Source: a virus
Virus record (IMG/VR): IMGVR_UViG_3300023184_008808
Location: 1 to 64,000 of that record
DNA: 64,000 nucleotides
Strand: one strand, 5' to 3'
Shown: positions 15,080-52,523 of the stretch, one piece after another
Position numbering within the stretch: the first letter of the stretch is position 1
Layout of the letters: each line of letters opens with the position of its first letter
The notes under the pieces: model-generated
Told to the model about the DNA's origin: nothing
Databases searched by the model: none
What the model saw: the letters and a program-made list of their open reading frames with translations, nothing else
Program-made: the position numbers and the translations under genes

Positions 15080-15101
15080 ATTAAAGATCATACATATTTT
15101 T

Positions 15102-15326
15102 ATGTCACTTATATCCTACAAAGAATGGCGTCAAAAGATGTATGAAGCGAGTCCTACAACTCGTCTTCGTGCTGGCATTATGATGGGTAATTATCCCATG
15201 ACTGCAGCTGGCATGTCTCGTTCAACGCCTCATCCTGAATTCGTCAAAAAGGCTATCCAAACCTTTGGTAGCCCAGAACATCCTAAGAAATCCAAAAAGC
15301 ATAAAAAGCGTGATAAAAAAGGCTGA
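15102..15326 (+). CDS. small basic protein with a capsid-targeting-like N-terminus
   Basis: MSLISYKEW..YE; Lys-rich tail; TACATA 5 nt upstream. Confidence 0.7.
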   Translation: MSLISYKEWRQKMYEASPTTRLRAGIMMGNYPMTAAGMSRSTPHPEFVKKAIQTFGSPEHPKKSKKHKKRDKKG

Positions 15327-15329
15327 TTT

Positions 15330-15773
15330 ATGCTTTTATTTTCGGAATGGATTATAAATCGTCTAAATGAATCTAAGCGCAAGCTTGGCAAATCTCGCTC
15401 CACACCTTCTGCTCGCACTGATATTGATCGTTGGATTAAATCTGTAGAAGATTTAGCCAAAGATTTAGAAGAATTAAAAAAAATAAAGAAAAAGGTAAGT
15501 GAGCGCAAAAGATCTCAAGAACTCGTTAAGCGTGTTATGAAAGAACCTAAAAAAGAAAAAGACAAAGATAAAACAGAAAAGCCTAGTGAAGATCAAAAAT
15601 CAAAGCAGGAAGCCAAAGAAAAGACTAAAAATCTTAAGGTAGATTCTCAGTACAAACAAAAGTCTTTATTGACTTCCAAATCTGAGAATCCAACTACTAA
15701 AATACAAGGAAATGTTAAACGAGATGTCAATAAACAAGCAGAGCTTTATAAACGAGGAGGACAGTCAAAGTAA
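15330..15773 (+). CDS. Lys/Glu-rich protein with a capsid-targeting-like N-terminus
   Basis: MLLFSEWIINRLNE. Confidence 0.7.
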   Translation: MLLFSEWIINRLNESKRKLGKSRSTPSARTDIDRWIKSVEDLAKDLEELKKIKKKVSERKRSQELVKRVMKEPKKEKDKDKTEKPSEDQKSKQEAKEKTKNLKVDSQYKQKSLLTSKSENPTTKIQGNVKRDVNKQAELYKRGGQSK

Positions 15774-16080
15774 ATTATCAATTTACTTTTTCTTTGCCTT
15801 TTGGATTTGGATTGGTTTTGTTAGTTGCATAGACACTGCACTTTCACTTAAATATCGTGATCAATTGATACATGTCGAGGAAAATCCAATTGCTGTCTGG
15901 CTTTTGCAGATCGACGATGGCACTCTTGCTCAATTTGTTGCAATTAAAATGTTTGGCACGATAATTGTTTTAGGTTGTCTTATTACTTTATTGAATTTTC
16001 GTATAAAGTGGGGACTTACAATAGCCATTGTTCTTGCTATGTTTCAAGCTTGCTTGTTGGGTTATTTATTTCTCTTATAA
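15724..16080 (+). CDS. 3-TM membrane protein (DUF5658-like)
   Basis: D..LS...EENPIA.WLL; hydrophobic segments. Confidence 0.65.
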   Translation: MSINKQSFINEEDSQSKLSIYFFFAFWIWIGFVSCIDTALSLKYRDQLIHVEENPIAVWLLQIDDGTLAQFVAIKMFGTIIVLGCLITLLNFRIKWGLTIAIVLAMFQACLLGYLFLL

Positions 16081-16096
16081 TTATGTAAATGGGAGA

Positions 16097-16570
16097 ATGT
16101 TTATGTCAGGTGACATGTTACAAAAAATGAGCGATATGATCAGATTCCCTGATTATACTTCTGAAGAAAAAAATAAACATGCTAAAGAAATTCAAAAACA
16201 ACTGATTATCAAACCTGATAGTGCCAACACTTATATTGTCGTAACTGCTTTTGATACTGAAAATTCAAGTAATTTTGTTAATCGTTTAACTTGTCGCAAT
16301 GGCTTGCCTATTGGTGGTTATGTTTATGATGCTCAAAATGATTGTTATTTTGTAGAATGTGCTGATTTTTTAGTACTTGGTGCAATTCCAATTGCTTATG
16401 TTGCAAGTTTTGAAGGAGATGTTAATTGGAAGTCTAGAGTGCCAATATCTTCTTCGGTAATTAAAAAATATCTTAGTCCTTTGCAAAAACAAGAATTAAA
16501 GAATTTTCAAAAAAAATTTAAATCACCAAAATTTCGAATCAATTTCGTTCAAATGGTAGACCCAAATTGA
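16097..16570 (+). CDS. hypothetical protein
   Basis: SD GGGAG. Confidence 0.65.
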   Translation: MFMSGDMLQKMSDMIRFPDYTSEEKNKHAKEIQKQLIIKPDSANTYIVVTAFDTENSSNFVNRLTCRNGLPIGGYVYDAQNDCYFVECADFLVLGAIPIAYVASFEGDVNWKSRVPISSSVIKKYLSPLQKQELKNFQKKFKSPKFRINFVQMVDPN

Positions 16571-17013
16571 ACAAAAATAAAAATTATCCTTGGTCGCAAA
16601 TAGATCTAGATGATTTATGGATGGGGCTGGCTTTAATGATGGCTTGCCGCTCTCCTCTAGGTAATGCTTGTTTGCTTGTTGAAAGTGACAAATTGCTTTA
16701 TGTTGGTCTTGAAACTCATCCTAAATATAACTGCAATTCTAAGATGGCAATAGCAGCAGAAATTGATGCAATCATGAATTGTCCAATTTCTTATAGTGAT
16801 GCTTCTCTTTTTTTAACGACTACACCTTCTTCTGCTGGTTTAATGGCAATCGCTTCCATTTCTAAAGTACAAAGACTTGTTTATTTTGCCAAAAATAATT
16901 CTGATATTGAAAAAGATTTGACTAATAGTCCAATTCTTAGCAAATATCAAGGAAATTTGAATTGGTTAAGAGATTATGTTCGAAGTTTAGATTTATTAGG
17001 GCATAAGCCATAA
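16567..17013 (+). CDS. dCMP-deaminase-like protein lacking Zn ligands
   Basis: DDLWMGLALMMACRS; IAAEIDAI (for HAE); LFLTTTPSSAG (for PCxxC); VQRLVY. Confidence 0.7.
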   Translation: MNKNKNYPWSQIDLDDLWMGLALMMACRSPLGNACLLVESDKLLYVGLETHPKYNCNSKMAIAAEIDAIMNCPISYSDASLFLTTTPSSAGLMAIASISKVQRLVYFAKNNSDIEKDLTNSPILSKYQGNLNWLRDYVRSLDLLGHKP

Positions 17014-17021
17014 ATATCCTT

Positions 17022-17849
17022 ATGACATGTTCATCAACTGGTATTGGTTATTCATCTAGTTCCTCTACTACGGCTTGCCCCGACCAATATGGTTGTGTGT
17101 CTGGTGTTTGCCCAGACTTTGTTATTCGTAGACACGATACAAAACCTCAATTTAAAGTTAAGGTTGAAGATTGTGACGGCCCTCTTGATTTGGCCAATCT
17201 TGTTGTTGAAGCATCAATGTGGGCCAAGGCTAAATTAAAAACAGCTATGGATGATAATGATACTGTTTTAGCATTTGCTGATAATATTGGCTTTGGACAG
17301 GTTATGATTGGCGATATTCTCTTGATGGATCAAGGGCGTCTTCCCGAAAAAATGCTTGTAGTTTCTTTTGATGAAGTAAACAGGCTTATCCATGTACAGA
17401 GAGGTTATCATGGAACTCCGATTCAGACATGGAAGCGTGGTTCTTCTCTTCGCATATTAAAATTTACAAATGCTACAGCTAATGGTGAAATGTTATATCA
17501 AGATATTGTTGAACTTGATGGCACAATAAATAAAGATGTACTAATTGATAGTTTTCTTGTTTATGATTGGCATACTGCAGATACTTGTTTGCCCGGTTGT
17601 TATTATATCGAATTTAAATTGATGAAAATGACCCCTGTTTCACTTCATATGCAAAGCATAGTGCCAAGCGATCAAATTCCAAGTAACTTAGTGCCAAGTA
17701 ATGTTGTGCCAAGTTTTACAGATCCTAGTCTTACACCTTCAGATTTAAGTTGTGGCATAAGCCCTACTATTGAATGGATTCGTCGCTTCCCAGTCGATAC
17801 AGAAGGTTTCTTAATCAAAATCAATGATTCGCCTACAATCAATGATTAG
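17022..17849 (+). CDS. probable virion structural protein (BppU-like N-terminus)
   Basis: IRRHDTKP..V..DGPLDL, YDW..DT..PG.Y..EF; TAAATA upstream. Confidence 0.6.
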   Translation: MTCSSTGIGYSSSSSTTACPDQYGCVSGVCPDFVIRRHDTKPQFKVKVEDCDGPLDLANLVVEASMWAKAKLKTAMDDNDTVLAFADNIGFGQVMIGDILLMDQGRLPEKMLVVSFDEVNRLIHVQRGYHGTPIQTWKRGSSLRILKFTNATANGEMLYQDIVELDGTINKDVLIDSFLVYDWHTADTCLPGCYYIEFKLMKMTPVSLHMQSIVPSDQIPSNLVPSNVVPSFTDPSLTPSDLSCGISPTIEWIRRFPVDTEGFLIKINDSPTIND

Positions 17850-17938
17850 GTATATAATTATCTTGACATTTTTGATTTTTGGCTTAATACTTTAATCGTT
17901 TTGTTTGAGGCCATTTTAACCTTTTGTGAGTAGCAAGA

Positions 17939-18505
17939 ATGAATAACCCAAATTATGGTAGGCGTTTTTCAAGGGATCAGAATTTCAAAAGAGAAGATGA
18001 ACACAGGGTTAATTATAATATTCTTGTTCCACAAGTGCGAGTAATTAGAGGTGAAGAGCAGTTGGGGATTATGCCAACTGATGTGGCTCGTCGCATGGCT
18101 ATGGACGAAGGATTAGATCTTGTCGAAGTTGTTGCTACTGCAAAACCCCCTGTTTGTCGAATTATGGATTATAGTCGTTTTAAGTATGATCAAAACATAA
18201 AGAAAAAAGAAACTGCAAAAAAGCAACGAGAGGCCCAATCTCATTTAAAAGAAATTCGTCTTCGCCCATCTATTGCCGATCACGATACTGATATGAAAAT
18301 CACTCAAGCAAAAAAATTTATTGCTGAGGGCAACAAGGTTCAATTTAATCTTGAATTTCGTGGTGCTAGAGAACTAAGCCACAAAGAACAAGGATTTAGA
18401 GTAATGCAACGAGTGGTGGAGGCTTTGGCTGAATTTGCAAAATTAGATAGAGCTCCTGCTATGGAAGGCAGAAAAATAATATGTTCATTTTCTCCTAAGG
18501 CTTGA
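17939..18505 (+). CDS. infC: translation initiation factor IF-3
   Basis: VRVI.GEEQLGIM, GLDLVEV, PPVCRIMDY, KEIRLRP, FRG. Confidence 0.95.
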   Translation: MNNPNYGRRFSRDQNFKREDEHRVNYNILVPQVRVIRGEEQLGIMPTDVARRMAMDEGLDLVEVVATAKPPVCRIMDYSRFKYDQNIKKKETAKKQREAQSHLKEIRLRPSIADHDTDMKITQAKKFIAEGNKVQFNLEFRGARELSHKEQGFRVMQRVVEALAEFAKLDRAPAMEGRKIICSFSPKA

Positions 18506-23491: not shown

Positions 23492-24232
23492 ATGGCTGAA
23501 TCAAATAACATGGTGCACAACCCTTTAGAAGGGGAACGCCCCGAAATGACAATTAAACTTCACGAGAATTCTGAAGATCATATTTCAATTATTATTGTTC
23601 ATAAAGATCGACCTGAGTATTTAAATATTTGTCTTCAGTCAATTGCTGTTACATCTTTTAACAACAATTACGAAATCATTGTAGTCGATAATGGAAGTGG
23701 CAAAGAAAGCCAAGATTTTTTAAATGATATCGATGGTGAAGTAAAAGTTGTTCGCAATGATAAAAATCTTTATTGGTCAGCTGCTTGCAATAAAGGTGCT
23801 CAAGCCGCAGATAAAAATAGTAAATATTTTATTTTCATGCATTGCGATGTTGTTGTTTTGAATCCTGCATGGATTGATCTTCTTGTAAATGTCTCTGAAG
23901 CTCAACAAGCTGGAATGGTTGGAATTGACACCTCTTCTTATATGATGAGTGGTCAAAAAGTTGATTTCATGCAAGAATATGTGCTTCTATTTACAAAAGA
24001 ATGTTGGAATGATGTTGGACCTTGGCCAGAAACCTTGCCTCAGATTGGTCACAGCTTCATTTTGACCATGAAGGCCCAACAGCGTGGTCACAAGCCTCAA
24101 ATCATGAAGAATCAAATTGTGCATCACTATCGCAACTTTAGTCTAAATATTAGCGAATACGAACGCATGGTTGATCAAGCTATGACAAGTCTTCCGAAGC
24201 ATCTTTCGGAAATACAAAGTCGCCCAGTTTAA
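23492..24232 (+). CDS. GT2 glycosyltransferase
   Basis: ISIIIV, IIVVDNGS, ACNKG, FMHCD. Confidence 0.85.
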   Translation: MAESNNMVHNPLEGERPEMTIKLHENSEDHISIIIVHKDRPEYLNICLQSIAVTSFNNNYEIIVVDNGSGKESQDFLNDIDGEVKVVRNDKNLYWSAACNKGAQAADKNSKYFIFMHCDVVVLNPAWIDLLVNVSEAQQAGMVGIDTSSYMMSGQKVDFMQEYVLLFTKECWNDVGPWPETLPQIGHSFILTMKAQQRGHKPQIMKNQIVHHYRNFSLNISEYERMVDQAMTSLPKHLSEIQSRPV

Positions 24233-24702
24233 GATTTAGATTCAAGTTTTTTCATAAATTTGCTCCATTCATTATTCACCCAAATTATTGGTGGGTGAGT
24301 TGAATAATGGGCTGCATAAGCCATGGAAAATATTTCTTCGTCATTTTGCATCAAGGCTTTTTTCTGTGCTTTTTTGTCAAATTTAGCAATTTGTTGCTTT
24401 TTAGTTTTTTCAACAAGTTCAGACCATTCTTTTCTTAAATTTTTTGTCATCATATATTCATAAACTAAATGAGCTATTTCATGAAGTGTTGTGAACATGC
24501 GACTGTAGTTCCATGGTGCTGCAACCACAATTTTGTCGTGATGAATATAGCCAATATGTTGATTATCACCCTTTAAAGTATTTCCGGGCGTATATCTGAA
24601 TTTATAGCCATTAAGTAACTGCCTATGTTTTTCTGGAATCATATCCAGCATACGCTCTACATTTTTGCTTTCTTCAGTTTCTAAGAAAAGTTTGAAGTTC
24701 AT
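24229..24702 (-). CDS. zincin-like metallopeptidase with a capsid-targeting-like N-terminus
   Basis: HEIAH...EEIFS; MNFKLFLE. Confidence 0.7.
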   Translation of the reverse strand: MNFKLFLETEESKNVERMLDMIPEKHRQLLNGYKFRYTPGNTLKGDNQHIGYIHHDKIVVAAPWNYSRMFTTLHEIAHLVYEYMMTKNLRKEWSELVEKTKKQQIAKFDKKAQKKALMQNDEEIFSMAYAAHYSTHPPIIWVNNEWSKFMKKLESKS

Positions 24703-24802
24703 CGTGCACTCCAGAGTTCAATCTTACTTATAAATGCTTGTAGATAATCAATCTCAACAATTAAATAAACAGTCAGGTATAAATAGATAAAAGAGGTGAA
24801 TC

Positions 24803-26362: not shown

Positions 26363-26657
26363 TTTATAATTTTTTAAAACTTTTATCATATGCTTTTTAT
26401 AACTTTAGGGTTTATTTGATTGCCTTAAATAAAAAGCCGTATTAAGTCTTTAAAATAGTATAGTTGATGAATCGACCTTGATTGACGAAAAGCTTTGAGA
26501 GGCAGCAATTCTCAACTATCATTAAATAATTAGCGGTGGTTGAAAAACTAGCTTACAAATAATTTTGTTTGGTGCATTATTGATAATCCCTTGGTGCAAG
26601 CTACGGGATTCTTTCTTTTCATTTACAAAATAATATAGTTCTAACTCTAAATAAGGC

Positions 26658-27789: not shown

Positions 27790-27811
27790 AAATCATTCAT
27801 ATTTTTATATT

Positions 27812-41379: not shown

Positions 41380-43143
41380 ATGTTTAATTTTATTGATTTT
41401 CTGCATGAGCGTGATGACAATCTTTATATGAATTTTTTTGATATAATTATTGAACGCTCTGAATCAGAAATTGAAAATATTCAACCAAAAGATGGGCATT
41501 GGAAGAAGATTCAATCGGGCTTTGGTGAATATGTTTTCAATGTTGAAGGTGACGATTGTGTAATCTATGGCGTAAAGAATGACCCTTGTTATAAAGTTAC
41601 CATTTCAGGCAATGATAATGATCACAACTATGGTGTAAGTATTGCTTTTACTCGTGGAAGCAGTTATTCTGATTATCGTGGAGAATTTGGTTCTAAGGTA
41701 TTTGATGGTGTTCATAAGGCGATTTATGAATATATCAAGCAAAATAAGCCAATAGCTTTAAATTGGTCACCAATATCACGCACTTCTGTAAATCCTGTAA
41801 CTGGTGCAATTACAAATCCAGAAGCTCGTTCTAAAGCTTATGAAATTTGGTCGATAAAATCTTTATTCCCAGAAAAATATGTTTCTTTTAAGCCTAATCT
41901 TTGGATTAGTAGAGAACTATATGACAAGTTTTATGTGCCCCAAGGATTTCCAGCAGTTCCCAAAGATTTAACTTCCGAATCTACTCCGGGAAATAAGAAT
42001 AAATTTCTTAAAAAGATGCGTGAGGAACATAATAATCCTGAAAATCGTCAAGCCAGAGTTCGAGCTTCTGATGCTGTTGATCAATATAGGGCAACTCGTG
42101 AGCGAGAAGAAGCAGAAAGACAGCGTCAAGAAGAGCAACGGCGGTTAGATCAAATGATTAGTGATCCTAATCATAATCCAAATAATTTAGCAGTTGGCTC
42201 AAATGTTTATCTTGATATTGATGAAAATAATTATCGCACTAAAAGTTTAAATAGTAATTTCTATACTTCTTATGAACTTAGAAATCATAAAAATTATTTT
42301 GAAGATTACAACAGTGACAAATGTAAAATATTAAATTTCAAAATTAAAAAATTTGATGATAAGTTTTTTTTGGTTTCTACAATTAAATTTGCAGCAAATT
42401 TAAATGATAACTATGAATTTGATGTTTTAGTTGGAGATTTAAAAAAATATAGTTCAGAACATGAAGAAGAGTTTAAACTCAAAGCTAAAGAAGAGTTGCA
42501 AAAATTTATTGATGATGCGAGATACAATCCTAACAATTTTAAAGTTGGTTCAAAAGTTATTATGCAGCAACATGCAATGGCAGGTTTTGTTCAGCCTTTG
42601 TTGGGTGCAGTTGGTACGATAGAAAAAATATCATTTGATTATGATAGAGATTATTTATACGCAGATATTATTTGGAATTCTGATGAATCATTAACTGACA
42701 TTGCTCGTCGAACAATTTCTCAATTTCCTAAAGCAACCAAAATGAATATTTCTCAGGGAAGACTTCTATTGGCTACACCACAAAACATTGAAAAATTAAA
42801 AAACGATATTGAACAAAAAGATCAACAACTTCAAGTACGGCGTCAAGAAGAAGAAGAGCGTCGTCGTCGTCAAGAAGAAGAGGAAAAGCGTCGTCGGGAA
42901 GAAGAAGAACGCTTTCAGCAACGCTCTGCTACTCGTGCAGAACGAGGAGCTCAAATAGATACTCTTGGTTTTTCTGTTGGTCAACAGGTTACTGTGACGG
43001 CTGGGCCTCATGCTGGCAAGAGTGGTCAAATTCGTGAATTTAGAAGAATGGAAACAACATCTGGATCTCCATCAACTGTAGCTATAATAATAAGTAACAA
43101 TACTCCATTTATTGTTAACACTAGACTTCTAAGGGCTAATTAA
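41380..43143 (+). CDS. multidomain protein with E/R-rich helices and KOW/SH3-like repeats
   Basis: MFNFIDFLHE; NPNN.xVGS.V twice; C-terminal FSVGQQVTVTAGPHAGKSGQI. Confidence 0.75.
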   Translation: MFNFIDFLHERDDNLYMNFFDIIIERSESEIENIQPKDGHWKKIQSGFGEYVFNVEGDDCVIYGVKNDPCYKVTISGNDNDHNYGVSIAFTRGSSYSDYRGEFGSKVFDGVHKAIYEYIKQNKPIALNWSPISRTSVNPVTGAITNPEARSKAYEIWSIKSLFPEKYVSFKPNLWISRELYDKFYVPQGFPAVPKDLTSESTPGNKNKFLKKMREEHNNPENRQARVRASDAVDQYRATREREEAERQRQEEQRRLDQMISDPNHNPNNLAVGSNVYLDIDENNYRTKSLNSNFYTSYELRNHKNYFEDYNSDKCKILNFKIKKFDDKFFLVSTIKFAANLNDNYEFDVLVGDLKKYSSEHEEEFKLKAKEELQKFIDDARYNPNNFKVGSKVIMQQHAMAGFVQPLLGAVGTIEKISFDYDRDYLYADIIWNSDESLTDIARRTISQFPKATKMNISQGRLLLATPQNIEKLKNDIEQKDQQLQVRRQEEEERRRRQEEEEKRRREEEERFQQRSATRAERGAQIDTLGFSVGQQVTVTAGPHAGKSGQIREFRRMETTSGSPSTVAIIISNNTPFIVNTRLLRAN

Positions 43144-43160
43144 AATTTGGAGATTTTTCT

Positions 43161-43913
43161 TTGAACAGACCTTTGCTTATATTGAGCATGCCAAATTGTG
43201 GTTCAGACTGGCTTGTATCTACTATTCAGAAAAGCAATCTAGATTTAATTTATAATAGAGAATTTTTCAATCCAGCCGTTAATATTCAACACAGAGATGT
43301 TATTAAGCAAGCATTTGGTAGTGAGTATGTTGGCAATTATAAAAATATAGCACATTTTGATTATGAATCTTGTGACAAGGTTTTTAAACAAACTTGGGAA
43401 AAGACAAATTTTAATTTTACAAAAGAAAATTATTCAGCGTTTAAGATTCCTTATTTTTTTGATAAATTCTTTTGTTTTGCTTTTATTCGAGATGTTAGAC
43501 AATCTCTTCCGGGATCTCGTACCATACAAGTTTCTTCTTGGTATGATGCAATTTATCAATCTATGTTGTGTAATTTAGATAGTTTGTCCGATTGGATTAA
43601 AGATGCCATAAAAAAATTCACAAGTGAAAATCGTTCAACTTATGAAGAAAATGTGTTTGCTTTTTTGTTGTATCAAAAAATATTAGTTGAAATGTGCAAA
43701 GTTCATGGAATCACCGTTATAGAGTACAAAAATCTCATGCAATTTGATCGTGATAAATTAACTGACTATTTAAAGATTTTTGAAAATTATCTCAATGTTA
43801 AATCATGGGTTAATCATATAGTTAGCAGTCGAAAAAATCATAGACGGAATTTTAATTCAACTAATGGTGAATGGATTTTACAAAAATTTTCTGATTTAAA
43901 GTGTGGAACATGA
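43161..43913 (+). CDS. sulfotransferase-like P-loop protein
   Basis: LILSMPNCGSDWL...EFFNP, IEYKNL. Confidence 0.55.
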   Translation: MNRPLLILSMPNCGSDWLVSTIQKSNLDLIYNREFFNPAVNIQHRDVIKQAFGSEYVGNYKNIAHFDYESCDKVFKQTWEKTNFNFTKENYSAFKIPYFFDKFFCFAFIRDVRQSLPGSRTIQVSSWYDAIYQSMLCNLDSLSDWIKDAIKKFTSENRSTYEENVFAFLLYQKILVEMCKVHGITVIEYKNLMQFDRDKLTDYLKIFENYLNVKSWVNHIVSSRKNHRRNFNSTNGEWILQKFSDLKCGT

Positions 43914-44314
43914 GCGTAAAGCAAGTTATTGTGTGGCGACATGATTTAAATTGTCGAATGGGTAAAAAAATGGCACAGGCTGGACATGCAGCTTTGGCTG
44001 ATTTTTTTTCTAGCTTTCAAAATCATGTTGATGCTTATGGAAATGTTTCATTTCAAATGACCGCAGAGCAATTTGAATGGTATCTTAATAATCGAAAAAA
44101 GATAGTTCTTAGGGTTGATAGTGAATCAGATTTATTGCTTCTAAAGCAACGAGGCGAAGAAATGGGGCTTCCTGTTTATTTGATCACAGACGATGGTTTG
44201 ACCGAATGGGAAAATCCTACCAATACTTGTTTAGCTATTGGGCCTGCCAATGAAGCTGCAATAGATTTATTGACTGGAGAAAACGGACCCTTAGGAAAAT
44301 TAAAACTATTATAG
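43910..44314 (+). CDS. pth2: peptidyl-tRNA hydrolase, Pth2 family
   Basis: KQVIV.R.DL, GKKMAQAGHA, KKIVL, D.GLTE, TCLAIGP. Confidence 0.92.
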   Translation: MSVKQVIVWRHDLNCRMGKKMAQAGHAALADFFSSFQNHVDAYGNVSFQMTAEQFEWYLNNRKKIVLRVDSESDLLLLKQRGEEMGLPVYLITDDGLTEWENPTNTCLAIGPANEAAIDLLTGENGPLGKLKLL

Positions 44315-44324
44315 GAATGCTTAT

Positions 44325-44822
44325 ATGTATTTTTATTTCCCGCAAATGTTAAAAGCTGATCAATGTGATATGTTGAATCAGTTTGCTTTTGAAAAATTGA
44401 AAAACAACCAGATGGAATGTGAGTCTCAAAAAGAATGTCTTGGTAGATCATATGGAATTGGAGGCTTGCCTCCATTCGAAGGACTTCTTCATCAATTAAC
44501 ACCAATCATAGAAAACGCAACAGGCATTAAGGGATTAGAGGCTCAAAACTCTTTTGTAAGATTTTATTTTAATGGTGGAAAAATGCTCCGCCATGTAGAT
44601 CGTGCAGGTTTAGATATAACATTGTCTCTTTGCACTTATAGTAACATTGAAAAGCCATGGCCTTTATATTTTGAGGTTGATGGAAAAATTGCTTCAGTGA
44701 ATACTCAGGTAGGAGATGGAGTTATGATAGCTGGTACTAAAATGCATCACTGGCGTGATGATTTGATTTGCAATGAAGATCAGTTTGTTATTCAATCTTT
44801 TTATCACTGGCGCATACCTTAA
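44325..44822 (+). CDS. 2OG-Fe(II) oxygenase
   Basis: RHVDR, WPLY, GDG, HWR. Confidence 0.8.
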   Translation: MYFYFPQMLKADQCDMLNQFAFEKLKNNQMECESQKECLGRSYGIGGLPPFEGLLHQLTPIIENATGIKGLEAQNSFVRFYFNGGKMLRHVDRAGLDITLSLCTYSNIEKPWPLYFEVDGKIASVNTQVGDGVMIAGTKMHHWRDDLICNEDQFVIQSFYHWRIP

Positions 44823-44883
44823 TACGGTAAAAAAGCTTGTAATACTCCTGACATAAATCAATAAATATGTCAATGGAGGTTTT

Positions 44884-45495
44884 GTGATAGCTAACCGTAA
44901 AGTGCTCGTTCTCAATAAATCGTGGCAACCGGTTTCGGTTGTCACATTAGAAAAAGCCCTTTCTAAATTGCTTGCAACATATTCAGATGGCACGCCTAAA
45001 GCCAAAATAATTGATGCTGTTCATGATTTTGCTAATTACACTTGGGAAGATTGGAGTAAATTAAAGCCATCTGAAAATGAATTAAAAATTCGTACAGTAA
45101 CTGCAGTCTTTCGAGTTCCTGAAATTATACAATATACAAAATACAATCGTCCTCCAATGCATCGAGTGAGCTATAACCGTCGAACAATATATCGTCGTGA
45201 CAATTATACATGTCAATATTGTGGTAAATCTAAGAATACGAATGAAATATCTCTTGATCATGTTATTCCAAGATGTCAAGGTGGTTTAACATGTTGGGAA
45301 AATATTGTTGTAGCGTGTACTGATTGCAATTCTCGCAAAGCAGGTCGAACCCCAGAGCAAGCAAGAATGAAGCTGCTCAAAAAGCCTATTCGTCCAAAAT
45401 ACAATTTTTTAATTGAAGATATAAGGGTTGATAGTTGGCAAACTTTTATAGGCGAAGCTTATTGGAATTGTGAATTAGAAAACGATATGGACTAG
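44884..45495 (+). CDS. HNH endonuclease
   Basis: RDNYTCQYCG, DHVIPR, CTDCNSRK. Confidence 0.92.
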   Translation: MIANRKVLVLNKSWQPVSVVTLEKALSKLLATYSDGTPKAKIIDAVHDFANYTWEDWSKLKPSENELKIRTVTAVFRVPEIIQYTKYNRPPMHRVSYNRRTIYRRDNYTCQYCGKSKNTNEISLDHVIPRCQGGLTCWENIVVACTDCNSRKAGRTPEQARMKLLKKPIRPKYNFLIEDIRVDSWQTFIGEAYWNCELENDMD

Positions 45496-45587
45496 ATTAT
45501 TTTAACATTTTAGATTATATTCTTTAAGTTGTTTGTTTTTATTTTTAAAACGCAATTGGCGTTTGGCAACTTTTTGGATATTTGATC

Positions 45588-46760
45588 ATGACATCTTTTA
45601 TCACGATTGCAGCATCTTTGGTTGGATTATTTGCTTTCGTTCGTTACATCATTCTTGTTGAGGTGCGTGTTGATAGTAATACATACAAAATGATTTATGA
45701 TTATTTTTTAAATGAATCTAAATTTATTGTTACCGAAGAATTCACAACAAAAGTGCGTCATCCAATTCAATATACAATAATTAGCATGTCTAAAAAAGCA
45801 CCGTGGTTTTATCTTAGTCATAACGAGCGTTTAATGCAAGCTGGTTGGCAATCTAAAGATTTTGTAACTGTTATTACATGTATGCGTTGGAACTATAACA
45901 CTTTAAGGCATTTTCTTAATGTTACTTTGAAAGAAATTGCTCTTGCCACAAATGGCGTTCCTGTTCAAATTTTATTGCCCTATCATGCTGATAAAATTGG
46001 TGCTCTTAAGAATCAAGCTCCAGAACCTATTGTTGATTCTTTTTTGTGGAAAGATATTGATGAAGAGGTTTCTCAAGTGGTTGCTGGAAAACGACAAAAA
46101 ACTGGAGCTTTGTTGTATGGCCCTCCGGGAAATGGAAAGACCAGTTTGGTTAAGTATCTTTGTACTAAATATCGATTGCCGATCATGATTTTTACTTTAG
46201 ATCCTCAATGGAACAATCATGATTTGCTTTTAGTTTTTTCTAACATTCCTCCAAATTGCATAGTTTTAATGGAAGACTTTGACAATTATTTCAAAGGCCG
46301 AGAATGTCTTTTTGGTGGTTCAGAAAAGAACATGGTGCGTTTCACTTATGATGTTATTTTGAATGGACTAGATGGTGTTTTTAACTCATACGAAGGTGTA
46401 ATCTTCATCATGACAGTTAACAACATTGATCATGTTGATGCGGCACTTAAGGATCGCCCTAGTCGTTTTAAATATACAAAGAACTTTGGCAATCCTTCGT
46501 TGGAAGTGAGAAGAAAATTACTGAATGGAGATTGGGCAGATAAATCAGAAGGTCTTAATCTTGATCAAATATTTCGCTTGCAAGAATATCAACGAGATGG
46601 CCACAGCTTTGTTGAATCCATGCGTAGATTAGAGCAAGAGTTAACTCCGCTTATTGAGCAAAAAGCTAAAAGCATTTATGAAAAAAGACTTTCTTTAGGT
46701 ATTGATGGCACAGCAAATGAAGATTGGGTTAATGCTGAAAAAGAACTCACATTAAAGTAA
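45588..46760 (+). CDS. membrane-anchored AAA+ ATPase with a DUF2934-like C-terminus
   Basis: N-terminal TM; GPPGNGKT, MEDFD, RPSRF; EDWVNAEKEL. Confidence 0.85.
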   Translation: MTSFITIAASLVGLFAFVRYIILVEVRVDSNTYKMIYDYFLNESKFIVTEEFTTKVRHPIQYTIISMSKKAPWFYLSHNERLMQAGWQSKDFVTVITCMRWNYNTLRHFLNVTLKEIALATNGVPVQILLPYHADKIGALKNQAPEPIVDSFLWKDIDEEVSQVVAGKRQKTGALLYGPPGNGKTSLVKYLCTKYRLPIMIFTLDPQWNNHDLLLVFSNIPPNCIVLMEDFDNYFKGRECLFGGSEKNMVRFTYDVILNGLDGVFNSYEGVIFIMTVNNIDHVDAALKDRPSRFKYTKNFGNPSLEVRRKLLNGDWADKSEGLNLDQIFRLQEYQRDGHSFVESMRRLEQELTPLIEQKAKSIYEKRLSLGIDGTANEDWVNAEKELTLK

Positions 46761-47655
46761 AGTCTATTGATTCAATTTCAAGAAGTGATTTCGGAAAAGA
46801 ATCACCATTTGCAAATTCTGGATTTGTGCTTTTCATCCATTTCTCTTTGATGCGCTTTTGAATTGTTGGATTTTGAATGAAGAAGAATTCTACATCACGC
46901 TTATTTATGTTTTCTCTAAGAATGCTAAGTCCTGCATCGGCAAAAAGTTTTTTATATGATTGAATTGGGTCAAAAAGTTTTTGCACTGGTTGAGTTTTTA
47001 TGCCCATTTTGAGCAATTCTTCTTCATTAAATACAAGATGTATAAATGCTTTGTTGAGATCTTTATAAGCATGTGCTCCATTGCGACTACACCAAGGGTG
47101 ACAACGCACAAAAACTCTTCCGCTTTCACTTTTTATTGATTTAATTTTATTGAAGTTAATATTTTCACAATGATCAATCACATCATTTAAAATGATGACA
47201 TCATATGGCCCCATGTCAATCACATCTTGCCAATTGGTTGTATATTTTAAACAATCCATTTTTTCAAAATCATTCCATTTATTATCTTTAAGATCAAATC
47301 CAATTGCCATTTGAGGAAAGAAAAGATTCGCTATAACAAATGGCAAATACCCAGAGCCAGTTCCAAAATCTAAAACTTTTTTATCTATAATATCAGATGT
47401 AACAAGAGTGCTGATAATATTGGAAGCTTGATTTACTTTATCTTCAAAGCTATTTTGGTTAATAAAATCAGCATCAACGGCTTCTGGCCAATCTTTTGAT
47501 TTGCAAAGAATTCTAAGTTCTGTTATTTCTCGTAATCTATCCTCTTCGTTTTCAGGATTTTTTTGAAACACTCCTTTAGTTTCAGCTAAATTTTTCATAA
47601 AAGCAAGCATGCTTTCAAGCTGAGAGATAAAGGTGTTTATTGTTTTGATTTCCAT
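46747..47655 (-). CDS. class I SAM methyltransferase
   Basis: VLDFGTGSG, YDVIILNDVIDH. Confidence 0.85.
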   Translation of the reverse strand: MEIKTINTFISQLESMLAFMKNLAETKGVFQKNPENEEDRLREITELRILCKSKDWPEAVDADFINQNSFEDKVNQASNIISTLVTSDIIDKKVLDFGTGSGYLPFVIANLFFPQMAIGFDLKDNKWNDFEKMDCLKYTTNWQDVIDMGPYDVIILNDVIDHCENINFNKIKSIKSESGRVFVRCHPWCSRNGAHAYKDLNKAFIHLVFNEEELLKMGIKTQPVQKLFDPIQSYKKLFADAGLSILRENINKRDVEFFFIQNPTIQKRIKEKWMKSTNPEFANGDSFPKSLLEIESIDFTLM

Positions 47656-47715
47656 GTTTTTGTTCTCTGTTACTTATCTTAAATTATAGTTTGTTTAATA
47701 TGAATCGGGGTAGTT

Positions 47716-48246
47716 GTGGAAGATTTTCGTATTTCTTCGCCTTTTGTGTTGTCTGTTGTTTTTGATCTTACATCTCAACGAGAAGCAGGCGGTAAAAAGT
47801 ATTTTGATATAATCGTTCAAAAACTTAGGGAATTTACCACAAATGGCTCACAAAACATTGTTTATGTAGCGCATCCAGATAATAAAATGCCTCGAAATGC
47901 TTCGGAAAGTCATGCTCAATTGATTCAATATGTTGAGCCAGTTTCTAGGTCAATGAGAGATGAAATCAGGAGAGCAGTAACTACTATTGGTGAATATTCA
48001 GATGATGTTCGCAAACGAGTTATTTTTTTTACAGATAGATATAAATCTACTATGAGTTCACAGTTTTTGTCTGGTTTTTTGGAGAACAAAGGAAGACACT
48101 ATGATTGTGATATCATTCTTTGTGCAGTGGGAAATTATGCTGATTACAAAAATTTAGAATCTTTGGCTTCTAAAAATGATGCAAAAGCAATAAAAGTCGT
48201 CACTGAAGAGCAAATCATCAATTTTTTAAAGAGGCTTGAAGACTAA
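47716..48246 (+). CDS. vWA-like protein (degenerate MIDAS)
   Basis: VVFDLTS, VIFFTD, AVG, LESLA. Confidence 0.5.
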   Translation: MEDFRISSPFVLSVVFDLTSQREAGGKKYFDIIVQKLREFTTNGSQNIVYVAHPDNKMPRNASESHAQLIQYVEPVSRSMRDEIRRAVTTIGEYSDDVRKRVIFFTDRYKSTMSSQFLSGFLENKGRHYDCDIILCAVGNYADYKNLESLASKNDAKAIKVVTEEQIINFLKRLED

Positions 48247-49025
48247 TGGCAGATATAGTAGCAATAAATCGAACTGTAGTTGCAGACAGTTTTAATATGC
48301 AGCCTGTTGAAATTATCATCCCTTTTTATAATCAGTCTACTAAAGTGGTGAATTTGATTCAGGATATTTTTTTGACTGTTCAGCGGAATCGTTATTTGAT
48401 AACTTTGGTTGATGATGGATCTAAAAATCCAGATTTTATTAAGCAGTTAGAAGAAAAGAAAATTCCCGGTCTTCGCTTTATCATTCATGAAAAAAATAGT
48501 GGTTTTGGTGCCGCTGTTAACAATGCTTTAAGATATCCTTTTAGTGATAATATAAACTGGGTTTGCATACTTCATTCTGATGTGCGAATTAGTGATGCTA
48601 ATTGGCTTTACAATCTTGGCACTTCGATGAATAAATTAAAAAGTAAAGGTGTAAAAATGATAGCACCTTTAACAAACAACCCGGTTGTAGACAATCCATT
48701 GTTGAAAGCAGATAAGGCAACTTATAAGGATGATATTATTTTGACTGAAGGATTTTTACCATTTTACTGTGTTTTTGCTCATAGACAATTGTTTAACACT
48801 GTTGGTTTATTGCCCGAATACCCATATGCAGGTGTGGAGGTCGAAGTTTATGCTAAGGCCATGAAGGAAAAGGGTTTTTTTCAAGCTGTTTGTAATTCTA
48901 GTTGGGTTCAGCATGAGGGTCGTGGAACACTTAAACATTTAGATAACAATAAAAAGGTGCAAGAAATATTGCGAAAAGTAAAAGAGTCTAAGCTTGAAAA
49001 GCCTGAAAATAAAGCACAAGAATAG
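48246..49025 (+). CDS. GT2 glycosyltransferase
   Basis: IIIPFYN, LVDDGS, NSGFGAAVN, LHSD. Confidence 0.85.
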   Translation: MADIVAINRTVVADSFNMQPVEIIIPFYNQSTKVVNLIQDIFLTVQRNRYLITLVDDGSKNPDFIKQLEEKKIPGLRFIIHEKNSGFGAAVNNALRYPFSDNINWVCILHSDVRISDANWLYNLGTSMNKLKSKGVKMIAPLTNNPVVDNPLLKADKATYKDDIILTEGFLPFYCVFAHRQLFNTVGLLPEYPYAGVEVEVYAKAMKEKGFFQAVCNSSWVQHEGRGTLKHLDNNKKVQEILRKVKESKLEKPENKAQE

Positions 49026-49063
49026 TATATAATATGAGTTAAGCTTATAAAGGAGACACTCTC

Positions 49064-49219
49064 ATGCGCTGCAAAAAAGATGACGGAACATATACAATGA
49101 CTACTTGGAAATATTTCACAGCCCAATGTACTCGCAATCAACAGGCTTTAGGCATTTGCTCCGGTACTTCAGGTGCTTTTGTACCTGCAATTACCGTTTG
49201 TCTTCAAAGACTGTTCTAA
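49064..49219 (+). CDS. 51-aa Cys-containing protein
   Basis: Manual call MRCKKDDG...; SD AAGGAG; TATATA upstream; terminator downstream. Confidence 0.65.
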   Translation: MRCKKDDGTYTMTTWKYFTAQCTRNQQALGICSGTSGAFVPAITVCLQRLF

Positions 49220-49247
49220 TATAGAATAAAATGCCCCAATTACCTAG

Positions 49248-49278
49248 ACGACCTACTTTAAAGTAGGTCGTTTTTTTT
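49248..49278 (+). terminator. intrinsic terminator
   Basis: ACGACCTACTT/AAGTAGGTCGT followed by a T-run. Confidence 0.8.
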
Positions 49279-49393
49279 GTTTCTAGTTGATCTTGATTTT
49301 GTTTTATTTTTAGATTAGGGTTTGCTATCTTTTGGTTTGCTTGACCAAAATTGCTTTTTTCATTTTAAATCATCAAGCGAAAGGATTTGTAAG

Positions 49394-49591
49394 ATGTTGC
49401 TTTTAAAGCGCAGAATCGATCAAAGCATTATGGTGGGGGATATGAAAGTTACCGTTATAAAGATAACTCAGAACGAAGTCATGTTGGGAATTGATGGTGA
49501 TAGACGAGTAATTGTTCATCGTAAAGAAATTTACGATAAAATTCAAAAGGAAAACAATGTCAAAACCGAGAAGTTGCCCGCACTGTCATGA
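49394..49591 (+). CDS. csrA: carbon storage regulator CsrA (copy 1)
   Basis: MLLLKRRIDQSIMVG...V.LGI...VHRKEIY. Confidence 0.88.
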   Translation: MLLLKRRIDQSIMVGDMKVTVIKITQNEVMLGIDGDRRVIVHRKEIYDKIQKENNVKTEKLPALS

Positions 49592-49910
49592 AATTTTACC
49601 AATCAGCAATGGCTTTACTTTTGACCATACATTGAACCTAGTTTGTTCCTCTTGTAGCAAAGTTGTTTATCAAGCTCAACAGGTGTCAATCTCAAGGAAT
49701 GAGGGTTTAAATAGTGATTTCAATAATAACGCAGATATACAACTATCTGAACAAGGAGCTTTTTGCAGGGAGTTTGTCCTCACCTCAAATTCAATATCGA
49801 ATGAATCGCAAATATGCGATGCGGTGGGAGAGCGAGACGAACATCTTGCACATAGGGGCCGATTTCATCGATTTAAATCTTATAAACACTGGAATCTTCT
49901 TAATCCATGA
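49557..49910 (+). CDS. zinc-ribbon protein
   Basis: CPHC...CSSC; SD AAGGA; 3' part overlaps the next gene. Confidence 0.55.
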   Translation: MSKPRSCPHCHEILPISNGFTFDHTLNLVCSSCSKVVYQAQQVSISRNEGLNSDFNNNADIQLSEQGAFCREFVLTSNSISNESQICDAVGERDEHLAHRGRFHRFKSYKHWNLLNP

Positions 49911-50346
49911 AATGGTTCATATCTTAAATAAAAATAAGAACATTGTTGATGTTTCTGCCAACCAATATCACAAATTGGAATTTGCTTCTGTTGCAGCAAA
50001 CCTTGGATTCTATGTTTTGCGACACAAAACTCAAGGCTGGAGCATCACTCAAACAAATATACCTTCTTCTTTAAAAGAGGATCATATTGATCCTGTTCCA
50101 GAAAAATTAAATAAACTTATCTTTGTTCTTAAAAATATTCCAGTTAGTGTAAAGAATTTTGAAAAACAAATGAAGAATTTTATTGATTTAAGGAATCAAT
50201 CTAAGCCAATAAAGTCTTTCTTTTTAAAATACCAATGTCAATGTCCTCCGCCATATAACAGCATTCGATCTGGCCGTCGCCCAGATAGTCCAAATGCTCC
50301 TGAAGTTTTTTGTAAAAAATGTCAATCTGACTTTGTTTGTTCTTAG
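49714..50346 (+). CDS. SprT-like metalloprotease
   Basis: YNYLNKELF, HEMVH, YHK..F, CQC...CKKC. Confidence 0.8.
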   Translation: MISIITQIYNYLNKELFAGSLSSPQIQYRMNRKYAMRWESETNILHIGADFIDLNLINTGIFLIHEMVHILNKNKNIVDVSANQYHKLEFASVAANLGFYVLRHKTQGWSITQTNIPSSLKEDHIDPVPEKLNKLIFVLKNIPVSVKNFEKQMKNFIDLRNQSKPIKSFFLKYQCQCPPPYNSIRSGRRPDSPNAPEVFCKKCQSDFVCS

Positions 50347-50699
50347 TGAATGCTAGCTTCTGGATCAAATCGTTTTATGATTTTTATGTAAATGATATAC
50401 AAAAGAATAGTAGTAATGGTAAATTCAAGGAAACTGCCAATGAATTTACCAATTTCAAAGTCCATACCATTAGTCGGGCTAAAAATTAACAGTCTCCAAT
50501 CGCCGCCAGTTGCTGTTACTGTAAATTTTATGATTGGCATGATGATAGATTCAGAGATTGCCGTCACAAATTTTTGCATAGAATTTGCCATGATTAGTGC
50601 AAGAGCCATGGCAAACAAGTTTTTACCAAAGGCAAATTTCTTGTAATCGTTAAATTCTTGCTGAATTTTCTCGGTGTTTACAAACTTTTTTTCTTCCAT
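50343..50699 (-). CDS. mscL: large-conductance mechanosensitive channel-like protein
   Basis: KKFAFGKNLFAMALALIM, IIMPII, IGKFIGS. Confidence 0.8.
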   Translation of the reverse strand: MEEKKFVNTEKIQQEFNDYKKFAFGKNLFAMALALIMANSMQKFVTAISESIIMPIIKFTVTATGGDWRLLIFSPTNGMDFEIGKFIGSFLEFTITTILLYIIYIKIIKRFDPEASIH

Positions 50700-50720
50700 G
50701 TTTTATTTACGACAGACAGC

Positions 50721-50880
50721 TTTACAAAAAATAACTTCTTAGGTAAGATCACTTCATGTAATCGTCCAGAGCGAGGTGATGGAGCCTCGCTGTCTGACAC
50801 GCCGCCTGTTTAGGCGTCAAATTTACCTTTGGAGTGTTTCCAAGGGAGTTTCGTGTGTCCATTCGTTAAGGATAACAAGT
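50721..50880 (+). promoter_or_regulatory. sigma70-like promoter and structured GGA-rich 5' leader
   Basis: TTTACA-17-TAAGAT; three hairpins, the first with an ATGGA loop. Confidence 0.65.
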
Positions 50881-52128
50881 ATGATGAAGAATATTGATTC
50901 GCAAGATTTCCCAATGCAGCGTTTACCTCAAGGATGTAAACATTTATATGGAAATCTTTTCATGGTTCCTTTTAGTGCCATCAAAACCCCTGATGCAAAA
51001 GAATCATCAGAAGGTTCATATAAATTTAAAAATCCTCGAATGTTGGTAGAACGGGGACAAGCAGATTTGCTTGATAAAAAGCTTTGTAAAGATTTACGGG
51101 ATAGTATCAAACATCGAACTTTGCTTAATCCACTCGTTTGTCGTTGGGTTGAAGATGGCGAAAAGCTTGTTCCAATGATCCTTGGTGGAGATCGTCGTTA
51201 TCGTTCCCTTGATTATCTTATTCGCAAAAAAGAAGAAGTTACTGATCCACGAGGTGTTTCCGTTGAAAATGGAACATGGACTTATCAGAAAATTACAGCT
51301 GATCAAGCTTATGAATATGTTCTGTGCCAAGTTTTTGCAGTCAGTGATGATCTTGAAGCTCTTGCCCTTTCTTGGGCAGAGAACAAGACTCGTATTAACT
51401 TGACAGATGGTCATGAAATTGCAGAAGTCATTAAATTGCGTGAAGCTAATGCTACTGATGGTCAAATTCTTGACATTTTACAACAAGACCAAAAATGGCT
51501 TGCAGAAACTGATCGTTTGATCGATGGTCTTGATTCAAATAGTCTTGCCGATCTTTTGGAAGGTCGAATTGATCGTGGTTCTGCTGAGGAACTCGTCAAA
51601 ATTGAAGATGTCGAAATGCGTAATCAAGTTCGAACTATGGCTACCGAGGCTGCTGCCGAAACTTGTGAACGCAAAATTGAGCGAATTAAGAAAAAAATGG
51701 ATAAGTCTATGGAAGCCTTAGAATTGGCAGAAGGCTCTGTAGCCTTTGCTTCTAGTGAAGAAGACTTAAATGATGCAAATAACGACCTTTCTCTTGCAAA
51801 GGCAGATGTTCGTAAATTAACTGACAAAGCTAAAGAAGTTCGTCCTGTAGCAACAGCTAAGCATATTAGAAGTGCCGCAGAACAAATGGGTGGCAGTACT
51901 CCTCGAAAAAGGGCTAAAACTGAATCTGCTTCTAAATTAAAAGGTTTAAGTATTAAAAAAGGTGTTGAATATATCAACGGTTTAATTCGAAATAATGGTT
52001 CTTGTCATAGTGGGACTTTTAAAGCTCATATTGATGCTTTGCGTTTAGTTAACAAATTGTTAACTGAAAATGTTTTGACAGGAAATGATGATTGGGAAAG
52101 CACTTTGCGTAATCACTACGGAAAGTAA
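50881..52128 (+). CDS. ParB N-terminal domain protein with coiled coil
   Basis: NPR, LRDSIK..LLNPL, GDRRYR, AENKTR. Confidence 0.8.
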   Translation: MMKNIDSQDFPMQRLPQGCKHLYGNLFMVPFSAIKTPDAKESSEGSYKFKNPRMLVERGQADLLDKKLCKDLRDSIKHRTLLNPLVCRWVEDGEKLVPMILGGDRRYRSLDYLIRKKEEVTDPRGVSVENGTWTYQKITADQAYEYVLCQVFAVSDDLEALALSWAENKTRINLTDGHEIAEVIKLREANATDGQILDILQQDQKWLAETDRLIDGLDSNSLADLLEGRIDRGSAEELVKIEDVEMRNQVRTMATEAAAETCERKIERIKKKMDKSMEALELAEGSVAFASSEEDLNDANNDLSLAKADVRKLTDKAKEVRPVATAKHIRSAAEQMGGSTPRKRAKTESASKLKGLSIKKGVEYINGLIRNNGSCHSGTFKAHIDALRLVNKLLTENVLTGNDDWESTLRNHYGK

Positions 52129-52148
52129 TTAAGTTTTTTAAAAAATAT

Positions 52149-52187
52149 AAGATAAAGCTCGGTTTTAATATCGAGCTTTATCTTTTT
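52149..52187 (+). terminator. intrinsic terminator
   Basis: AAGATAAAGCTCG/CGAGCTTTATCTT. Confidence 0.8.
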
Positions 52188-52211
52188 GTTTTTTAAGGCA
52201 TACATAATTTA

Positions 52212-52523
52212 ATGATCCAAGTTTGTCCGCATTGCGGCTACCAACTTCAGCATATCTTAAAAGATGGGCTCACAAATTGCTCCCATTGCAATCAGGTTTT
52301 TGATTCTAGCGATTTAAATCAATTATTATCAGCAGCTTGGCATATTCGTCGTCAAAATTGGTCTCTTGAGCAATTAAAATGGCATTTAAAAATAGACGAT
52401 GCTCTAGCTATACTTGTTTATACATTTGTTTCTGATCATGGCTATACTCACGAAGAGTTTTTAAATTTATTGAAAAAACTCGGAGTAGCACATAAGTCAT
52501 ATATCAAATATAACAACGAATAA
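52212..52523 (+). CDS. zinc-ribbon protein
   Basis: CPHC, CSHC; TACATA 5 nt upstream. Confidence 0.7.
   Translation: MIQVCPHCGYQLQHILKDGLTNCSHCNQVFDSSDLNQLLSAAWHIRRQNWSLEQLKWHLKIDDALAILVYTFVSDHGYTHEEFLNLLKKLGVAHKSYIKYNNE

Follow-up and report, generated by a model that had tools for sequence, protein, structure and literature searches.

Late transcription in phage T4 starts from a lone 8-bp TATA box, TATAAATA, whose first base lies at -13 and which spans -13 to -6, with A/T-rich DNA downstream and nothing conserved at -35 (PMC2988020). A similar late motif, ATAAATA, has been predicted in the jumbo phages CBB and GAP32 (PMC5259590). Leaderless middle and late transcripts are known from the Thermus phages phiYS40 and Lalka27a. 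A third Thermus phage, P23-45, reportedly makes leaderless middle and late transcripts as well, and leaderless mRNAs are common in Thermus; phages phiKZ and AR9 make messages with long leaders. Here we describe a 64,000-nucleotide stretch of viral DNA (the window; positions 1 to 64,000 of IMG/VR record IMGVR_UViG_3300023184_008808), in which the hexamer TAnATA (hereafter the box) lies 4-6 nt before ATG codons that are devoid of a Shine-Dalgarno (SD) sequence. A literature search found no paper combining a T4-type late box with leaderless starts.

We favor, as a reasonably probable reading of this arrangement, a phage-specific class of T4-late-like promoters that is fused to start codons and gives rise to leaderless late messages. 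TAnATA would serve as a -10-type box, with an A/T-rich spacer behind it and, in many cases, an A/T-only element some 14-18 nt upstream, and would be recognized by host RNA polymerase together with a sigma factor of phage origin. With a box 4-6 nt from the ATG, the RNA would start on the A or within one base of it, and the resulting mRNA, carrying neither leader nor SD, would enter translation via the leaderless (5'-AUG, 70S-type) route. From boxes at greater distances, this promoter class would yield short, SD-bearing leaders.

The record comprises 90,159 bp (35% G+C), of which the window is the first 64 kb, and its CheckV completeness of 21% implies a genome of ~430 kb. Genes were called with a custom codon-usage caller (135 genes, coding density 92%), and starts were placed independently of the motif, at the first start codon of each frame unless a strong SD favored a later one. 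Relatives were recovered through the protein encoded at 24803 (19 IMG/VR loci) and through the DnaE protein. We refer to the contig itself as G000, to five related contigs taken whole as G001-G005 (G003 being locus L033 and G004 locus L035), and to a more distant relative as G006; the contigs of this clade are all fragments, 5-57% complete, most of them 40% or less. A megablast of 24803-29601 against cultured phages gave no match, and neither did a related-locus search that used the 27865 protein alone.

Spacing and conservation of the box

The seven SD-less TAnATA-N4-6-ATG sites that the first-pass annotation had pointed out in the window are all present, exactly where it placed them:

15091-15096, plus strand: TACATA, 5 nt before ATG 15102 of a 74-aa gene (15102-15326), no SD
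17009-17016, plus strand: CATAAATA (7/8 of TATAAATA), 5 nt before ATG 17022 of a 275-aa gene (17022-17849)
26646-26653, plus strand: TCTAAATA, 4 nt before ATG 26658 of a PhoH-like gene (26658-27392)
27853-27858, plus strand: TACATA, 6 nt before ATG 27865 of a 578-aa gene (27865-29601)
40900-40905, plus strand: TATATA, 5 nt before ATG 40911 of a 145-aa gene (40911-41348) with the N-terminus MNRLHKFIEY
50704-50709, minus strand: TAAATA, 4 nt before ATG 50699 of an MscL-like gene (50343-50699; PF01741)
52201-52206, plus strand: TACATA, 5 nt before ATG 52212 of a 103-aa zinc-ribbon gene (52212-52523)

Two further box starts lie outside the window, at 72985 and 74765, both on the minus strand. Over the whole contig, 30 TAnATA-N4-6-ATG strings are present on the two strands, and in nine of these the ATG is the first of a called gene. 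When the 134 starts are profiled by spacer length, boxes are found 2, 6 and 1 times at spacers of 4, 5 and 6 nt, never at 1-3 or 7-9 nt, and ~0.8 times per position elsewhere. Shuffling the upstream regions 1000 times with dinucleotides preserved gave a mean count of 1.14 ± 1.08, as compared to the 9 observed, and no shuffle reached 9, even when any 3-wide spacer window was allowed. The enrichment relative to start codons that the first-pass annotation had anticipated is thus present.

The relatives show the same behavior. G001-G004 carry 8, 10, 11 and 16 box genes where 0.8-1.6 are expected (counts reached by 0/1000 shuffles), and the fifth related contig carries 2 where 0.4 are expected. In the pooled set of 598 genes, boxes number 21, 23 and 12 at spacers 4, 5 and 6 (11 at spacer 6 in the set of 55 sites used below) over a baseline of ~4; these 55 sites belong to 34 unrelated protein clusters, and a box 4-6 nt before the ATG is carried by roughly one gene in 10-15. 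A motif-blind test of all 6-mers between -50 and -1 ranked box variants just behind the SD words, with TAAATA at 19 versus 5.2, TACATA at 8 versus 1.2, and TATATA and TAGATA enriched too, while A/T-rich control hexamers showed no positional peak. In an exact 5-mer by position test SD words predominated, and the degenerate box was not resolved. A cruder count of TAAATA-N4-6-ATG against the reversed pattern gave 15-21 versus 2 in G002, G003, G004 and G006, and 10 versus 4 on this contig; the same count revealed no excess in T4 (12 versus 15), CBB (8 versus 35), S-RIM12 (5 versus 10) or HMO-2011 (3 versus 2). In T4, TATAAATA-N3-7-ATG is likewise no commoner than its control (3 versus 4).

Six of the nine box genes have orthologues, and 16 of 17 comparisons place the box 4-7 nt ahead of the ATG, in upstream flanks that are only ~35% identical and with a middle base and spacer sequence that vary freely. 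The PhoH-like gene at 26658 carries a TAAATA core (TCTAAATA, TATAAATA or TTAAATA) at a spacing of 4 or 5 nt (+4/5) in 12/12 related loci whose flanks have diverged, and the box of 40911 is retained at +5 throughout G001-G005, once two miscalled starts are corrected. Orthologues of 15102 carry TAAATA+4 (G001, G002), those of 27865 carry TAAATA+6 (G002), TACATA+5 (G005) and TAAATA+6 (L012), and those of 52212 carry TAAATA+5 (G001) and ATAAATA+7 (G005); the MscL-like gene at 50699 has no orthologue among the relatives. At 17022 the TAA of the box doubles as the stop codon of the gene at 16567-17013, and the box TAA coincides with a preceding gene's stop codon at 74765, on the minus strand, as well. 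The orthologues of 17022 retain CATAAATA+5 with the upstream stop codon in a different register, indicating that the box is not a mere by-product of that stop codon.

The surroundings of the box were also compared. A divergent upstream neighbor is present for 40% of box genes, as for the MscL-like gene at 50699, which diverges from the gene at 50776/50881, and the gap to the upstream gene exceeds 10 nt in two thirds of sites; gap length does not, however, tell box genes and SD-led genes apart. Hairpins precede two of the boxes in the window. That of 27865 follows a CCCCG-N11-CGGGG hairpin with a T-rich run, which fell below the pass mark in a terminator scan; that of 52212 lies 6 nt beyond a terminator:

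52149-52194, plus strand: intrinsic terminator with a 15-pair stem and a T tail

A second element lies upstream. In 33 of 56 sites, the bases 18-14 nt ahead of the box form an A/T-only pentamer, roughly AAATT, AATTT or AAAAT, which lies ~25-30 nt from the ATG; the number is 6-15 at offsets at least 3 positions away, and among boxes inside genes such a pentamer is found for 13%. Two examples in the window, each at the fixed distance to its box, are:

15073-15077, plus strand: upstream A/T element of 15102
26630-26634, plus strand: upstream A/T element of 26658

Two arrangements among the relatives are of note. In G004, divergent genes starting at 9665 (minus strand) and 9681 (plus strand) are 15 nt apart and share one palindromic TATATA with 4-5 nt to either ATG, a common box from which both messages would emerge leaderless. 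In G003, a tandem array of eight genes (42448-57195; 188-725 aa) has TAAATA 4-6 nt before each ATG; the encoded proteins start with MNFK, MRFK or MTTF, and three of them are close paralogues.

Predicted start point and SD-led copies of the box

The hexamer TAnATA corresponds to the last six bases of the T4 late box, and full or 7/8 T4-like octamers are found here at 24778, 17009 and 26646. If the T4 geometry is applied, TAnATA falls at -11 to -6, and a spacer of 5 nt sets +1 on the A of the ATG. The pooled box is TAAATA in 35 of 55 sites, with the consensus (C/T)(A/C)TAAATA, and is followed by a spacer that is 81% A/T and contains only 6% G. A pyrimidine occupies -1 in 51/55 sites, as compared to 57% in SD-led genes; a pyrimidine at -1 followed by a purine at +1 is the usual context of a transcription start. 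The start codon is ATG at 55 of 56 box starts versus 84% where the SD match is 5 nt or longer, and an SD match is absent from 53 of the 55 sites, the other two having weak 4-mers only. The predicted folding of positions +1 to +36 is slightly weaker in box genes (median -1.4 versus -2.5 kcal/mol in SD-led genes, p 0.008), a difference that is confounded by their lower GC content.

Conservation among orthologous proteins begins at residue 1, the zinc-ribbon cysteines of 52212 begin at residue 5 and the MscL domain begins at residue 16. These ATGs are thus real starts and are necessarily carried on the transcript. If the box is a -10 element and the ATG is on the transcript, the start point can only be at the A or at an adjoining base. 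Taken together with its conservation and positioning, we consider it highly probable that TAnATA is a promoter box, and, with somewhat less assurance, we infer from its geometry that transcription probably starts at the ATG. The 'TATG' context of phiKZ late starts (PMC5312081) was considered as a model for these sites and fits poorly, since A is at -2 in only 11 of 55 sites.

The box also precedes genes that are led by an SD. The first-pass annotation had named a set of such genes, and its list is borne out, with a full TATAAATA before 24803 and hexamers 12-18 nt (31619, 35239, 44884, 62155 and, on the minus strand, 14234) or 30-48 nt (21540, 49064 and, on the minus strand, 22087, 52793 and 855) before the other starts. 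The best-defined cases are:

24778-24785, plus strand: perfect TATAAATA, 17 nt before ATG 24803 of a virion structural protein gene (24803-26362) with an SD leader
31598-31603, plus strand: TAAATA, 15 nt before ATG 31619, with an SD that begins ~5 nt past the box
35218-35223, plus strand: TAGATA, 15 nt before ATG 35239, with the same box-N4-SD layout as at 31619
44862-44867, plus strand: TAAATA, 16 nt before GTG 44884 of an HNH/endonuclease VII-like gene, SD-led
14249-14258, minus strand: overlapping TAAATA/TACATA, 14-18 nt before ATG 14234, SD-led

The 24803 box is present in 6/6 contigs as (T)ATAAATA or TTAAATA, at 13-45 nt from the ATG in the relatives. The boxes of 31619 and 44884 are both retained in G001, G002 and G005, and the leader lengths of the former differ. 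Indeed, conservation of the box before the SD-led genes 24803, 31619, 44884, 14234 (minus strand) and 21540, at distances that vary between relatives, argues for a DNA-level signal that is independent of the distance to the ATG. At 31598-31618 and 35218-35238 the layout is box-N4-(A)GGAG(G), so that the predicted start point coincides with the first base of the SD; the box-to-SD distance is 4 in nine clade genes.

Capsid-targeting-like N-termini and a proposed late timing

Many otherwise unrelated box genes encode proteins that start with M-x-(x)-F/Y-x-x-F/W/Y-L/I-x-x-E, such as MNFKEWL, MKTFYQFI or MTTFKQFLE. In the T4 record, ipII and ipIII start with MKTYQEFIAE and ipI with MKTFKEF; the T4 capsid-targeting sequence is a conserved peptide carried by otherwise diverse internal proteins (PMC3012670). 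A pattern built from ipI, ipII and ipIII matched 41 genes, and 23 of these have a box at 4-6 nt, as compared to 32 of 557 other genes (odds ratio 21, p 7.5e-16); several of the box-less matches have a close variant of the hexamer. A T4 gp21-type prohead protease (PF03420) is encoded in G003 (E 3e-28) and G006 (E 2e-37), and was not found on the contig of the window, a 21% fragment. The clade and T4 are alike in encoding both a peptide of this type and a gp21-type protease, and differ in that the T4 internal-protein genes are SD-led while their counterparts in the clade are often box-led and have no SD.

These N-termini suggest that the clade encodes a large set of head-internal or ejected proteins. 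Since the box is concentrated on genes for capsid-targeting-like peptides and also precedes a virion structural gene, the balance leans, if modestly, towards a class of late promoters. Additional starts of this type are found at 74765 (minus strand, outside the window) and in many genes of G001-G005, for example MNFAEFFRFIE, and one is encoded within the window by an SD-led gene whose G002 and G005 orthologues carry TAGATA ahead of their SD:

24229-24702, minus strand: 157-aa gene with the N-terminus MNFKLFLETEE

If 5' ends map to the ATG, the clade would possess a systematic leaderless programme driven by T4-type late promoters, which is unreported for T4, the cyanophages and the cultured jumbo phages, and whose layout is absent from T4, S-RIM12, CBB and HMO-2011. 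It would also provide a simple rule for calling true starts and late genes in uncultured huge phages, and the co-occurring capsid-targeting peptide would flag probable head-internal or ejected proteins.

Comparison with described systems also reveals differences. The T4 late promoters, which employ the gp55 sigma factor, the gp33 co-activator and the gp45 clamp, resemble the sites described here in their A/T-rich downstream DNA, in the presence of a lone box near the start and in their association with virion or head-internal proteins; T4 itself does not place the box next to ATG codons. CBB and GAP32 are alike in being very large phages that carry several sigma factors and, ahead of structural genes, a late motif like that of T4, whereas CBB encodes a gp55 homologue (1.4e-20) and shows no excess of boxes adjoining ATG. 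phiYS40 and Lalka27a rely on different -10 sequences (TAGGGT; extended -10) and make almost exclusively leaderless transcripts, while only ~7-20% of genes are predicted to be leaderless in this clade, in which many strong SDs are present.

Candidate sigma factors and alternative readings

Several observations weigh against a T4-late-like leaderless class. A gp55 profile (phrog_234) that recovered T4 (2.5e-70), S-RIM12 (1.3e-71) and CBB (1.4e-20) as positive controls gave no match in G000 and only sigma-70 proteins, none of gp55 type, in G001-G016 (~1.5 Mb of fragments), and a second profile (phrog_12791) gave no match in G000 either. The positioned upstream A/T element is not a feature of T4 late promoters, and the third base of the box, here free, is a further difference from T4. 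At ~30% of sites, the box and the end of the preceding gene overlap. Approximately 42% of called genes in four clade contigs have no SD (by a crude caller), such that SD absence alone is not diagnostic; SD-less translation from longer transcripts is evidently possible, and a leaderless route is not strictly required. The core head operon of G003 is SD-led and has no boxes, indicating that 'late' is not the same as 'leaderless', and most box genes of the window (PhoH, MscL, zinc ribbon, unknowns) encode functions other than those typical of late genes. The T4-late-like leaderless reading put forward in the first-pass annotation is supported in part, by the statistics and spacing of the box, its conservation, the spacer, the -1 base, the ATG starts, the terminator and the head-type proteins; the gp55-like late sigma that it proposed to look for elsewhere in the genome was found neither in this contig nor in 16 related ones, all fragments, and the additional A/T element did not form part of it.

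Four genes of the sigma-70 family are encoded on the contig, all with orthologues in related contigs:

31067-31600, plus strand: small sigma-70-family protein (177 aa) with region 2 and a weak region 4; best solved relatives FliA/WhiG (FliA, E ~1e-8)
36606-37181, plus strand: small sigma-70-family protein (191 aa) with region 2 and a C-terminal HTH (helix-turn-helix); nearest to SigH/FliA
58945-59895, plus strand: RpoD/RpoS-like sigma factor (316 aa) with regions 2 and 4
85978-86982, minus strand (outside the window): sigma-70-family protein (334 aa)

The T4-like box could possibly be read by one of the small phage sigmas, and that at 31067-31600 is a candidate reader. A tentative alternative goes further and sees in these sites a two-element promoter, read by a phage sigma-70-family factor with region 4 (the 177-aa or the 191-aa protein) and requiring no gp55, gp33 or clamp; leaderless starts could still follow. 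The presence of four sigma genes where gp55 was not found is in keeping with this possibility, as is the A/T element, which sits at the position of a sigma-28 upstream element (8 nt, N11, 8 nt), the sigma-28 consensus being TAAAGTTT-n11-GCCGATAA (PMC2859248). The likeness to sigma-28 (FliA) promoters includes the FliA-like nature of the 31067 sigma, but it extends neither to the box, which is unlike GCCGATAA, nor to the start geometry: a sigma-28 -10 element occupies -15 to -8 (PMC12784957), and its start would be located 2-3 nt inside the coding sequence, with loss of the ATG. In addition, both small sigmas match region 4 only weakly (E 0.008-0.03), and with 21% of the genome sampled a factor of the gp55 type may be encoded in the remainder. 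No match to multisubunit RNA polymerase domains (PF00562, PF00623) was obtained in G000-G010; enzymes of the phiKZ type may escape Pfam. We note that the RpoD/RpoS-like sigma gene is immediately preceded by an inverted repeat of ~10 bp (TATATACTCCT ... AGGAGTATAT; 58909-58944), whose hairpin would pair the SD AGGAG and may exert translational control.

The hexamer could instead act in RNA, with UAnAUA 4-6 nt before AUG serving on longer transcripts as a non-SD signal that recruits ribosomes or marks starts, for example by offering protein S1, or a ribosome modified by the phage, an A/U-rich site. Its spacing is within the range of ribosome-binding signals, many genes here are SD-less in a phage that encodes bS21 and IF3, and a third of the sites are tight junctions in apparent operons. 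We nevertheless regard this reading as unlikely. An RNA signal does not account for conservation of the same box 10-45 nt upstream of strong-SD genes, for the additional A/T element positioned ~25-30 nt ahead of the ATG, for a box sequence that is that of a known promoter class or for a terminator directly upstream of the 52212 box; to our knowledge, no RNA signal requires a fixed U at positions 1 and 5, and the A at -3 that is typical of Bacteroidota is seen in only 2 of 9 sites on this contig.

The first-pass annotation had extended the preferred reading, that of a T4-late-like promoter class fused to start codons, by suggesting that phage IF3 and bS21 retune host ribosomes for a mixture of leaderless and SD-led messages. 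The features concerned are:

12407-12691, plus strand: phage ribosomal protein bS21
17939-18505, plus strand: phage IF3 with both domains
17863-17891, plus strand: sigma-70-type match TTGACA-17-AATACT (10/12), 47 nt before the IF3 start and with no box; weak evidence

IF3, bS21 and the box layout do co-occur in one genome, and IF3 dosage alters leaderless translation (PMC9031893). Raised IF3, however, inhibits leaderless translation (PMC9031893), so that the simple version of this idea runs contrary to known behavior, and phiYS40, a phage with leaderless middle and late mRNAs, reportedly brings IF3 down and IF2 up (PMC3594737), whereas the present phage carries an IF3 gene. The sigma-70-type match upstream of that gene hints that IF3 is expressed from a host-type, perhaps early, promoter, and no positional or regulatory link was found between IF3 or bS21 and the box genes. 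We thus consider the extension doubtful. Equally improbable is the wider picture in which a ~0.4-Mb freshwater phage clade would operate two channels, one SD-led and one late and leaderless (with many injected or head-packed proteins), with IF3 and bS21 balancing them during infection. If 5' ends map to the ATG, the clade would represent a natural system in which to follow how a phage bearing IF3 and bS21 handles leaderless and SD-led messages together.

Lastly, the idea that the pattern simply follows from composition and gene packing (A/T-rich intergenic DNA, TAA stops near starts, paralogous cassettes) is very improbable and close to refuted: the box TAA is the upstream stop at 17022 and 74765, tandem paralogues in G003 and G004 have similar 5' ends and the hexamer is ~5x commoner in intergenic DNA overall, but dinucleotide shuffles never match the count, A/T-rich control hexamers are flat, the sites are spread over unrelated protein clusters, the box cannot hold the upstream stop in the two thirds of sites with a gap above 10 nt and persists where the stop codon shifts, and TACATA and TAGATA, which are not A/T-only, are enriched too.

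The remaining gene content of the contig includes a ClpX-like ATPase, a clamp-loader-like ATPase, an Rnl1-type RNA ligase and a tRNA-Thr, in addition to the PhoH-like, IF3, bS21 and MscL genes, and its virion structural protein belongs to a family common to cyanomyophages and HMO-2011. The nearest IF3 clusters are those of Bacteroidota and Spirochaetota, which constitutes only a weak lead to the host. Near-identical DNA was detected in 20 DNA sequencing runs, mostly freshwater or lake metagenomes and one marine; the same sequencing-run search listed no RNA runs that match the contig DNA.

Host-type promoter sequences were also surveyed. TATAAT with at most 1 mismatch shows no peak at 5-8 nt before starts, and TATATAAT is not enriched (8 versus 5.3); a general leaderless sigma-70 programme was rejected on these grounds. 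Individual sites of this kind were nonetheless observed. An extended -10-like TGATATAAT is followed after 7 nt by the SD-less ATG 59933 of the Rnl1-type RNA ligase gene (59916-59935), and a second, TGGTAAAAT, is followed after 6 nt by the SD-less ATG 62751 (62735-62753); both genes are possibly leaderless from a host-type promoter. At 39569-39595, TATATAAT is located 4 nt before a 4-codon ORF (open reading frame) and ~200 nt upstream of the tRNA-Thr gene (39790-39860), and may represent a promoter for the tRNA region.

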